From Lytechinus pictus (Eukaryota), in contig NC_087250.1 in NCBI RefSeq assembly GCF_037042905.1, forward strand, positions 8,434,001-8,498,000: 64,000 nucleotides of DNA. Reading direction: 5' to 3'. Shown here piece by piece: positions 704 to 37,900 of the stretch (position 1 is the first letter of the stretch; each line of letters opens with the position of its first letter). The notes under the pieces were generated by a model, which worked only from the letters and a program-made list of their open reading frames with translations, ran no database searches and had not been told where the DNA came from. The position numbers and the translations under genes were made by a program.

Positions 704-2089
704 AGGACAGGAAAAGATAGGAAATTATACTTCTTTAAAAATAATTCCATGTCCAAAAGTCATGAAGACCAAAATGAAAGTCTGAACGACGCAAAATTAC
801 ACAGAATTCGCGATGTAAAAAATTTTAACTGAAAACTGGCCCTACAAGTTGCAAAGTGCTGGACACATGGGGAGCTAGCTGTGCTTTTTCTCTCTAGCTC
901 TCTCTCCCCCTCTCAAGGAGGAAGATTACAGTGTGCCCCTATTTACTTTATCTCAGTTGTGTCCAAAAGTGGTTTCAAGTATAAATGCTAGGTTTTCACC
1001 ATGCTATATTACTGTGCTCAAAGGACTAGGTGTGTATATTACAAAGGGCAAGAATAACACACACAAGGGATCCTTGGAACATGGGAACGCTACATGAAAG
1101 GACTTGTCAGACATTTTATCCTACAAGTACAAGTACTGTTTTATCTGACAGTTACTATGGTAACAGTTCCTCTTAGCAAATCATAATCAAGGAAAGTTGT
1201 CAGACCTAAGAACTTGTCCGACGAAAATGTTGATGAAATCGCTCCTCAGATCTAACATTCCACATTTCACAACATATTAAAATAAAACATTTGCCAAAGC
1301 TGTTGTCATCTGAACCATCGTATCACACATGACGGTGAAAACCCATTTTAGAGAAAATCAGCTTCAAAGTTTACTATAATTTCTACCCTTTGTTCCCAGC
1401 CTTACAACATAATCCTTGAAAAAAAATACATGATTGGAAAGACCAAGACAATCACTTGACATTTGTAACTTCATTTTTATGTAAAACCAAGAATCAGAGA
1501 AAATATCGCAAAAGAGCTAAATACTTATAATTTTGGTTTGAGCCGTTTATATTTTCTTTGTACAAGACATAGGAAATGCGACAACCTTGACTGTGAATTC
1601 AATGCACGTCATCAGTCAAAACATTGTATCACTCTTTCACCTGCAAAGTCAATGACGGTTTGGCTTACCAAGTATTTGCATATTAAGTGAGCGCAGCTGT
1701 TGTTTAATTTGCTTTGCTACTGTACTCGTTTCCAATAGGACTTACACAGTTTATCAACAATTTGTAAGGCATCGCTGTGAAAATCCAAACATATCTAAGG
1801 AAAATAAAATAAATTGCTGCCTAGAAATTTTATCACATAAAGAACAGATCTTTTACTTTCAATTTCTGCAAAAATCTCAAAATCAATTTATTTTACCATA
1901 ATCGACTGATACAACGGTTCGGATGAGTGCCAACGATGTGATCTTACTCCTCAGTTTTCCAGACCCAAATATTACTGTAGCATTCTAGTTTTCAAGAGCC
2001 AAATTAGGACACGGACTAAATCATCAAGCCCCTTTAGTCATAAGCAAATTCCATTTTTCAGGGTATGGTTTAAGGCGACACACACTAAC

Positions 2090-34900: not shown

Positions 34901-37900
34901 TATTGAGATAGCCTGCATGTTCTTTATTTAAAATATGCTTATCCAGTTTGAGATCAGAATATCAATAATTACAATGTATCTGCTCGCGCTTCACACTGGC
35001 ATTATCAATGATACCCAATTAACCGTATCCTATTCATAATTCACATAATATGAATAGAGCGTTCGGCTTTTAGGTCTAAAATCTCAATTTTCTTCCCTCG
35101 CATCAATTGTTTAGTTACATACCTATCCCATTATGATTACAAAAGTGCTTCGAATGTCAATTTTTTAGGTCGAAATGTCAAAAAGTGTTAGCTCACACTT
35201 CAAGCTCCCATTATTGAAATATGTACTGTATTCGTGGGTAGCTGTAAACAGTCCTTAACAGGTCAGTTTCCGATCATGCTAGAACATTTATTAAAAATGT
35301 CTGCTCGTGCTTCGCGTTTGCAGTAATTATCTAGTTACGTATGCATCTTGTTCAGGATCACAAACAGTGCCCAGAATGTTCAATTTTCAGGACAAAATAA
35401 ATGAAAGATAAAAAAAAAATTAGCTCGCGCTTCGCGCTCGCACTTTTTATATAGGGCTTATGAGATCATTTCATATTTATGTTGTTTTATAAGATTAAAG
35501 CTAAGAAGTGACTGATCACGGAAAATACAGGTGAAGATAATTTCGGGCCCCACTCCCATTTGGTCGGATCTGCCCTTGTGACATAGTATATACGCACACA
35601 CAGAAAAAAAAATGTTGCCCCCCCTGAAAAAGCAAGGACCCCCCCAGTGCCCCCTAGGAAAAAAATCCTAGCTACGCCACTGAAACTGTCATTGACTTTG
35701 CAGGTGGAAGAGCGATACAACGTTTTGACTGATAACGCTCATTGAGTTCACGGTCAGGGTTGTTGCATCTCCTATGCCGTTCTTGTGCAGACAAAATATA
35801 AATGGCTTAAACCAAAATTACAAGTATATGTAGCTCTTTTGCGATATTTTCTCTGATTCTTGGTTGTATGTAAAAATGAAGTTATACACGTCAAGCAATT
35901 GTCTTGGTCTTTCCAATCATGTATTTTTCTTTCAAGGATTATGTTGTAAGGCTGGGGAACAAAGTGTGGAATTATAGTAAACTTTGAAGCCGATTTTTTC
36001 TAAAATGGGTTTCCACCGTCATGTGTGATACGATGGTTCGGATGATTACAGCTTTGGCAAATGTTTTATTTCAATATGTTGTGAAATGTGGAATGTTAGA
36101 TCTGAGGAGCAGTTTCATCAACATTTTCGTCGGACAAGTTCTCAGGTCTGACAACTTTCCTTGATTATGATTGGCTAAGAGGCACTGTTACCATAGTAAC
36201 TGTCAGATAAAACAGTTCTTGTAGGATAAAATGTCTGACAAGTCCTTTCATGAAACGCTCTCCTGTTCCAAGGATACCTTGTGTATGTTATTCTTGCCCT
36301 TTGTAATATAGACACCTAGTCCTTCCAGCACAGTAATATAGTATGATGAAAACCTAGCATTTATACTTGAAACCACTTTTGGACGCAACTGAGATAAAGT
36401 AAATAGGGGCACACTGCAATCTTCCTCCTTGAGAGGGGGAGAGAGAGCTAGAGAGAAAAAGCACAGCTAACTCCCCATGTGCCCAGCACATGACATCGCA
36501 ACTTGTCGGGCCAGTTTTCAGTTAAAATTATTTACATCACTATTAAAAAATTATGTGATATTTCGCGTCGTTCAGACTTTCATCTTGGTCTTCATCTCAA
36601 TCATGAGTGACTTTTGGACATGGAATTATTTTAAAACAAGTATAACTTCCTACTTTTCCTGTCGTTTTTGGGCAGAACCCCAGTAAGAGTTTAAACTATG
36701 ATGTAAGAAAATGAGAAGTACAGCTGAAGTAAAAAAAAAAAGATAATCTCTCATGGGAAGCTGCAAGGTGTTGATCACTGATTAAATGAGGAAAACAAAA
36801 TAGGGGTTGCCTGAGATACATAGGTTCCCGTGTTATAGTGGTGGGTTTTAGTTTCAATGATAGATGAACGTAATAGAGCACCTGTCACCTCAATGAATCA
36901 TTCAAATAATTGATGAATATGTATTGTTTTTTCTTGATAGATTCTGGAATCTACAGATGCGAGTATTGCGGATCAGTCTATGCTATTCCTCTCATCTTAG
37001 CAAGGCATCTCAAGTACAAACATGGGCTTAATGGTGTTGTCTTGCCATCGTATGCATCAAAGGAAAGCATTCTACAGTTTGTTGAAGGAGAAATACAAAA
37101 ATACATGTGTGAAATTAATTATTTTACCCATAGTGAAAAGAGAATTTTGAAAACAGGAAATAGGGAAAATATGATACTTGAAAAGAAACCTTATGTATGC
37201 AATCAGTGTGGTAAGGCATTTATTACTGCAAATCATCTCACAACACATAAACGCATCCATACAGGTGAAAAGCCCTATCGTTGTGATCAATGTGGTAAGG
37301 AATTTCATGAAATATCCAATCTCACAACACATAAACGAATCCATACAGGTGAGAAACCCTTTGTATTTGACCAATGTGGTAAGGCATTTTATGAAAAATC
37401 CAATCTCACAGTACACAAACGTATCCATACAGGTGAGAAGACCTATGTATGTGATCAGTGTGGTAAGGCATTTAAACGTAAATCTCATCTGAAAACACAT
37501 AAACGCATCCATACAGGTGAAAAGCCCTATGTATGTGATCAATGTGGTAAGGCATTTCGTGAAATATCCAATCTCACAACACATAAACGACTCCATACAG
37601 GTGAGAAACCCTTTGTATGTGTTCAATGTGGTAGGATGTTTAATCAAAAAGGAAGCCTCACAATCCATAAACGAGTCCATACTGGTGAGAAGCCCTTTGA
37701 GTGTGATCAGTGTGGTAAGGCATTTAGTAATGGAAGTTCATTGAGAAGACACATACGGATCCACACAGGTAAGAAGCCCTATGTTTGTGATCAATGTGGT
37801 AAGGCATTTAACCATGACTATGCTCTTACAATACATAAAAGAGTTCATACTGGTGAGAAGCCCTTTGTATGTGACCAATGTGGTAAGGCATTTTCTGAAA

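Follow-up and report, generated by a model that had tools for sequence, protein, structure and literature searches.

A head-to-head gene pair in the sea urchin Lytechinus pictus with an ancestral KRAB box and a probable origin in a SET-less duplicate of PRDM9

Gene organisation of the locus

The window analysed here is a stretch of 64 kb of the Lytechinus pictus genome, which contains two KRAB genes in opposite orientation. The right copy lies on the forward strand. It begins with a 5' block (21838–22358), a putative promoter and non-coding first exon, which aligns to 12925–12349; the homology ends just past the donor, GTGAGT after 22348. This is followed by an ancestral KRAB-A exon at 25727–25915, with an ATG at 25780 and 136 coding nucleotides (25780–25915), 67% identical to L. 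variegatus PRDM9. The exon model places an aKRAB-B exon with a PxxFM motif (PPMFM) at 27386–27475 and a linker exon at 28155–28234. A further linker exon, at 28681–28939, is homologous to the echinoid PRDM9 linker, with 52% identity over 87 residues to P0008, a PRDM9 of L. variegatus. The finger exon at 36941–39288 encodes a single finger of the PRDM9 post-SET type, then 24 tandem C2H2 units, a truncated 25th unit and a stop. Together the five coding exons give one open frame of 970 residues, in which the joining of exon 4 with the finger exon is predicted on the basis of splice sites, frame and the database models of paralogs. The layout of the right copy is an N-terminal KRAB box and a C-terminal tandem C2H2 array, with no SET domain.

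The array is highly repetitive. Units 6–24 are largely copies of a six-finger block, with 96–100% DNA identity, and unit 3 has a C to F change. Long open reading frames in the other three frames over the array were rejected as shadows of the repeat. Sequence comparison identifies degenerate, frameshifted fingers downstream of the stop on the same strand (39289–40483), broken at 39605–39889. Intron 4 of the right copy alone contains a nested insertion of 6.3 kb (29377–35682), in which 15 of 16 terminal letters are inverted and which has an 8-bp target duplication; we take it to be hAT-like.

The left copy lies on the reverse strand. Its 5' block with the putative first exon is at 12349–12925 (donor after 12359), and aligns to the right 5' block. 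The ancestral KRAB-A exon is at 6162–6350, with an ATG at 6297 (coding 6297–6162). The aKRAB-B exon (3700–3795) is 6 nt longer than its right counterpart and has the same PPMFM, and the linker exon at 2950–3029 matches that of the right copy. The second linker exon (2090–2507) is seen from its alignment to the right copy to contain an in-frame tandem duplication of 159 nt. An insertion of 0.9 kb with TTAA on both flanks (3966–4883) is found only in intron 1 of the left copy. An interspersed repeat occupies 1–699, inside left intron 4, and recurs at 51874–52823, where the copy is about 950 bp long. The left finger exon is not visible, because this repeat, which cuts intron 4 at 700, extends past the window edge; we infer that the exon should lie roughly 0.5 kb to the left of position 1.

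The inverted duplication and its spacer

The first-pass annotation had described a head-to-head inverted duplication, and self-alignment confirms it as collinear inverted homology between 700–13463 and 36669–21199. The length of 13–15 kb given for the arms is right for their spans, 12,764 bp on the left and 15,471 bp on the right, but only some 7.0 kb of this is aligned (6,998 bp, counted on the left arm), the remainder being copy-specific sequence, part of it recognisable insertions. The putative first exons are indeed about 10 kb apart, and each is followed by a conserved GTGAGT donor, after 12359 in the left copy and after 22348 in the right. Splice sites and frames were correctly described as intact in both copies, the four coding exons in each having AG/GT ends and open frames. 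The count for the KRAB exon is exact, with 8 differences in 136 nt, four codons purely synonymous and three with a replacement (E5K, A22E and T43I). It was also claimed that all coding indels are in frame, and the only two, of +6 and +159 nt and both in the left copy, are so. By comparison, 4 of the 32 gaps in five intron blocks aligned between the copies are divisible by three, which, set against just two coding indels, is a weak contrast.

The spacer (13464–21198) had been called almost pure transposon, which agrees well with the content found. Two outer elements, at 14684–16096 and 16117–21114, have inverted repeats at their ends, are flanked by 8-bp target duplications, and account for 6411 of its 7735 bp (83%). 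Nested in the second are elements at 17470–20990, 17930–20326 and 17967–20085, also with terminal inverted repeats and target duplications, the innermost duplication not being clear-cut. Inverted matches within the spacer (14684–16096 against 20990–17470) were considered as an extension of the arms and rejected: their identity is only 76–83%, and the target duplications differ, which makes them members of one family that inserted separately. A bidirectional promoter common to both genes was also rejected as the simplest reading, since the duplicated 5' block is present once in each copy and the two blocks lie 10 kb from one another.

We propose that an inverted segmental duplication in Lytechinus would have copied the entire gene including its own promoter, after which each gene copy would have acquired separate transposon insertions.

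Selection, transcription and the status of the two copies

A comparison of dN/dS with intron divergence had been suggested as a check on function. Comparison of the two copies over 188 codons gives a dN/dS of 0.27 (p=0.004), with the KRAB exon at 0.13 (p=0.007) and the rest at 0.40 (p=0.10). Replacement divergence (2.4%) is below the intron divergence of 7.2% (280 of 3910 sites; p=4e-5), whereas synonymous divergence (8.7%) is not. The N-terminal exons of the pair are under purifying selection.

RNA reads from two runs, X22 and X23 (about 6 in 100 of each), were mapped to 720–13500 at 90% likeness, their source individual not necessarily being that of the window. The finger exon is outside this stretch, and depth is dominated by repeats and is no gauge of copy number. 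The reads are stranded, at 87/0 and 116/0 in the exon bin of the two runs, versus 0.5 and 0.8 in the intron bin. The joint across intron 3 (2507–2950) is spanned by 83 and 108 reads, and that across intron 1, from the KRAB-A to the aKRAB-B exon, by 63 and 91; among the 15 joints listed, of 687, none leads to the putative first exon or over intron 2. The gene type is spliced and transcribed.

In the 40 letter differences listed, of 902, the reads are a mixture of right-type, left-type and third-type letters. Left-type letters make up 17/106 and 16/125 reads at 6262 (13–16%), 14/93 and 31/101 at 6223 (15–31%), and 10/125 and 19/144 at 2264 (8–13%), the last letter being one that, of the copies in the window, only the left second repeat has. 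It is likely, in these unphased reads, that the left copy is expressed.

It could be argued that only the right copy functions, and that the left one is a duplicate that was truncated or has died recently. The left finger exon lies beyond the window, the repeat sits about 270 bp ahead of the expected acceptor, and the left-type letter at 2373 occurs in 0/59 and 0/123 RNA reads. However, over 243 codons the left copy is free of stops and frameshifts and its splice sites are intact, both of its indels are in frame, and left-type letters are present in RNA at the three positions given above, although the reads are unphased and a third paralog could be their source. We regard a dead left copy as unlikely, if by no means far-fetched. 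The earlier description of two intact paralogs holds for the right copy; for the left, whose finger exon is beyond the window edge, integrity is unproven. Likewise, the description of both as functional members of a locally expanding cluster holds for the gene type, with its purifying selection, its spliced and stranded RNA and its relatives alongside PRDM9 copies, but is unproven for the left copy.

A different concern is that the arms could be two alleles of one gene that were joined by the assembler. Urchins are highly heterozygous, with figures of 2.9% for L. variegatus and 4–5% for S. purpuratus given in PMC9557091, which lends some weight to this idea. The intron divergence of 7.2%, with sites treated as independent, nevertheless exceeds both figures. 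Each copy has an insertion that the other lacks (0.9 and 6.3 kb), some 5 kb of the 5' intron cannot be aligned, and the head-to-head join runs over 7.7 kb without any N. Moreover, the right-type share of RNA is 30–37% at three KRAB sites and 47–87% at three others, which needs a third sequence type, although the samples may be pooled. An assembly of two alleles is very unlikely. The arms are very probably a true duplication, because intron divergence is above heterozygosity, each copy has its own insertions, and the head-to-head join is gapless.

KRAB type and descent from PRDM9

As described by Lorenz et al. (PMC8835667), an ancestral KRAB is marked by a one-residue gap relative to modern KRAB-A, and by a PxxFM motif. 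The gap is present in the KRAB of the pair. The spacing from W to N (NVKENY) is 17, as it is in PRDM9, in the coelacanth KZNF P0027 and in a rodent SSX-like protein; in the turtle KZNF P0015 it is 18. The VMLE motif of modern KRAB is absent from the KRAB of the pair. Judged by these sequence marks, the KRAB box of the pair is of the ancestral, PRDM9-type form. The best protein match to the KRAB exon is L. pictus LOC129263426 (93%), and 8 of the 10 matches looked up are Lytechinus proteins. A search of PDB sequences with the KRAB profile gave a single match at chance level (E 0.53).

In a tblastn search with P0008, residues 10–84, 124–210 and 440–795 match the window, corresponding to the KRAB, linker and finger exons in that order. 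The intervening residues 211–439, which comprise SSXRD, knuckle and PR/SET, have no tblastn match within the 64 kb at E<1, and the right gene therefore reads as PRDM9 minus its middle exons. Identity to P0008 is 69% in the post-SET finger, compared with the 52% of the linker. Vertebrate KRAB proteins of the compared set have no match to the linker or to the post-SET finger.

The best explanation of the whole, to which we assign a probability of about 0.75, is that the gene goes back to a SET-less echinoid PRDM9 duplicate, that the pair is a true duplication, and that its product is a predicted DNA-binding chromatin regulator. A duplicate of echinoid PRDM9 would have lost the internal exons for the SSXRD, the pre-SET knuckle and the PR/SET domain, so that the linker exon would come to join the finger exon in frame. 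This origin, which is not in the first-pass annotation, is the interesting part of the locus; the inverted duplication in itself is ordinary cluster turnover.

A SET-less family in Lytechinus

Complete SET-less models, with KRAB, post-SET finger and array, are found in both L. pictus (P0003, P0047, P0050 and P0019) and L. variegatus (P0014, P0046 and P0051). Most are on a contig of the same size as that carrying PRDM9 copies (28.5 Mb for L. pictus, 47.8 Mb for L. variegatus), while the PHD-bearing pair P0019/P0046 is on other contigs. In a 38-row tree, the family forms 14 rows on one side of a branch with a support of 95/100 (99.7/100 in a 28-row tree). Six of the 14 rows have no fingers and are fragments (P0001, P0005, P0009, P0012, P0013 and the left copy), and P0011 stops before the array. 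The family divides into five subfamilies, three of them present in both species.

The pair might alternatively be ordinary members of the vertebrate KRAB-ZFP family, which has an equal layout of KRAB plus C2H2 fingers. The right KRAB exon scores 20.7 bits (E 3e-4) against Pfam KRAB, barely over the cut-off of 20.4, and an AU test of a tree that joins the family with coelacanth and turtle KZNF does not reject this arrangement (p=0.066), with only 63 shared columns; the best tree separates them. Since the test is not rejecting, the case for independence rests on the homology of linker and finger and on the host, and not on the KRAB tree. Against membership, the closest named proteins are those of sea urchins, the KRAB spacing is the 17 of PRDM9 and not the 18 of turtle P0015, and the linker and first finger appear to derive from echinoid PRDM9. 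On this sequence evidence, vertebrate KRAB-ZFP membership appears largely refuted and is highly improbable, and the family most likely arose independently of the vertebrate KZFPs. The likeness to vertebrate KZFP clusters that had been drawn is sound as an analogy, but goes no further, given the sea-urchin host, the ancestral KRAB spacing with no MLE motif, and the echinoid PRDM9 descent.

In annotated proteomes, 5 of the 39 matches to the KRAB profile have an array and no SET family, all of them from Lytechinus, and in the non-Lytechinus matches with finger families SET is present in all 7. A search with the linker, in which 8000 candidates were scored, found 13 proteins from Lytechinus and 2 from S. 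purpuratus, and the S. purpuratus proteins both carry SET.

Two exceptions to the restriction of the SET-less form to Lytechinus were noted. P0055/P0075 of S. purpuratus have a PRDM9-type KRAB, part of SSXRD and a post-SET finger, with no SET and no array in frame. The second is the sawshark model P0017. In view of these, SET loss may be recurrent.

According to Lorenz et al. (PMC8835667), an ancestral KRAB with fingers and without SSXRD or PR/SET had until 2022 been found only in coelacanth; their Table S1 has no Lytechinus rows, and its 6 Echinozoa rows are all filed as PRDM9 orthologs. A 2026 survey of cnidarians (bioRxiv 10.64898/2026.09.07.749791) limited its count to truncated copies in which SET is retained. 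Searching the literature by title or abstract opening, subscription journals aside, we found no description of an urchin SET-less KRAB-finger family.

Possible functions

PRDM9 is described as marking hotspots through SET-written marks (PMC5519329). As predicted from its domains, the SET-less protein cannot write H3K4/H3K36 methylation, and would therefore not mark hotspots in the manner of PRDM9. Its finger array would be expected to bind long DNA targets, with the ancestral KRAB serving as a protein adaptor. It is most likely, as predicted from sequence, a sequence-specific chromatin regulator and a member of a birth-and-death family.

The chances that this regulator is a repressor are about even. 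The aKRAB of human PRDM9 is reported neither to repress nor to bind TRIM28 (PMC8835667). In the coelacanth, two ancestral KRABs are reported to bind the KAP1 of that species (PMC6745500), so that a KRAB of this type is able to turn into a handle for repression. For sea-urchin ZNFs overall, the predicted motifs are reported as enriched in transposons (PMC10547256), and transposon-derived targets are plausible as a prediction for the SET-less protein. A bolder proposal is that Lytechinus has re-run the birth of the KRAB zinc fingers, with an altered aKRAB recruiting a TIF1-family co-repressor to transposon-derived sites, in a family expanding by inverted duplication and finger-block amplification; this is rather unlikely.

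A meiotic role is also conceivable, in which the protein, itself without catalytic activity, would compete or team up with full-length PRDM9 rather than repress transcription. The KRAB and post-SET finger of PRDM9 are kept, relatives are on contigs with several PRDM9 copies, and the array has recent block duplications (96–100% identity). But SSXRD is gone, there are many family-wide changes in KRAB, and one subfamily has gained a PHD finger. The signature of contact-site diversity also appears weaker than that of PRDM9: by a measure described in PMC5519329, which takes the fraction of array diversity that falls at positions -1, 2, 3 and 6, the right gene scores 0.35 on 22 units, compared with 0.45–0.66 for five full-length urchin PRDM9s and 0.25–0.30 for four other SET-less genes. 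We consider a meiotic role quite unlikely.

Comparison with known systems

The nearest known relatives are the PRDM9/Meisetz proteins of camarodont urchins (L. variegatus P0008 and P0042, L. pictus P0048 and P0049, S. purpuratus P0052), which have in common with the right gene KRAB-A, a PxxFM aKRAB-B, the linker, the post-SET finger and a terminal C2H2 array, in the same order. KRAB is 62–67% identical. The right gene differs in having no SSXRD, knuckle or PR/SET, and in its 24 tandem units (PRDM9 has about 5–10), built from 6-finger blocks with an apparently lower contact-site diversity.

SSX proteins are, like the urchin gene, derived from PRDM9, with an ancestral KRAB and no SET. They are described as keeping SSXRD, as fingerless and as confined to mammals (PMC8835667), whereas the right gene is the opposite, with fingers and no SSXRD. 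Truncated PRDM9 paralogs of cnidarians and vertebrates show a similar birth and death of copies, as reported in bioRxiv 10.64898/2026.09.07.749791 and PMC5519329. Those of cnidarians are defined in the former as SET-keeping, with truncations at the ends, in contrast to the urchin gene, which has an internal loss of SET and keeps both ends.

The coelacanth lcha KZNF genes are reported as usually single-exon, present in more than 200 copies, and encoding proteins that bind coelacanth TRIM28 (PMC8835667, PMC6745500). The urchin gene differs from them in its five coding exons and in having retained the PRDM9 linker and post-SET finger. Tetrapod KRAB-ZFPs resemble the pair in having a KRAB exon upstream of one finger exon, and duplicates in clusters. 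Their VMLE motif with one extra residue, described as needed for TRIM28 binding (PMC8835667), is not found in the urchin pair.

A PRDM9-related KRAB is described as having given rise to the KRAB-ZFPs a single time, in the ancestor shared by coelacanth, lungfish and tetrapods (PMC6745500). That origin is old and its intermediates are gone; in Lytechinus, a laboratory genus, the loss of exons is still directly legible, with the parental linker and first finger in place. The family allows one to ask whether losing SET suffices to make a gene regulator out of a recombination marker, and what changes in KRAB come after it. The layout of a KRAB with a long finger array appears to have been reached separately by the largest family of gene silencers in vertebrates.

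Repeats and base composition

Within the window, a minisatellite of about eight copies of a 238-bp unit (32092-33972) lies inside a TTAA-flanked element; a relative of this element, inserted in intron 1 of the left copy only (3966-4883), does not have the array. A CpG-free satellite built from AACTGG-type units occupies 48831-50640, with 0 CpG in 49001-50000. The stretch at 59001-62000 is rich in both GC (up to 50%) and CpG, and is possibly a promoter or an element; a search of it for KRAB or finger motifs found none.

Mixed sequence types

The protein model P0001, in which exons 3-4 are repeated, and contig 11 of sequencing run X8 each combine letters typical of the left copy with others that are typical of the right. 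This mixture is a hint of either gene conversion or an additional, third paralog.

Domain changes within and outside Lytechinus

In each of the two Lytechinus species, a single contig carries two or more full-length PRDM9 models (P0008 and P0042 in L. variegatus, P0048 and P0049 in L. pictus). The SET-less, PRDM9-derived family includes a subfamily found in both species (P0019 in L. pictus, P0046 in L. variegatus), in which a PHD finger sits exactly at the former place of SET. In the L. pictus models P0013, P0045, P0082 and P0007, the KRAB of this family is fused with either a THAP domain or a V-ATPase C fragment; these models are possibly annotation fusions.

LOC100892554 of S. purpuratus (P0055/P0075) has a PRDM9-type KRAB, a partial SSXRD and a post-SET finger; SET is missing, and the tail resembles a finger read out of frame. 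This protein groups with PRDM9, which suggests that its SET loss was separate. In the shark Pristiophorus japonicus, the gene model P0017 (844 aa) contains an ancestral KRAB, 10 fingers and, judged by eye, an SSXRD-like stretch. There is no SET match in these 844 residues, and this could be a further SET loss or else a faulty model.

KRAB residues compared

In the KRAB alignment behind the 38-row tree, all members of the SET-less family have D preceding the V/I-x-x-Y/C-F motif, and all have lost the basic stretch behind PxxFM. Lytechinus and Strongylocentrotus PRDM9 have A where the SET-less family has D, whereas tetrapod KRAB has D before the motif, like the SET-less family.
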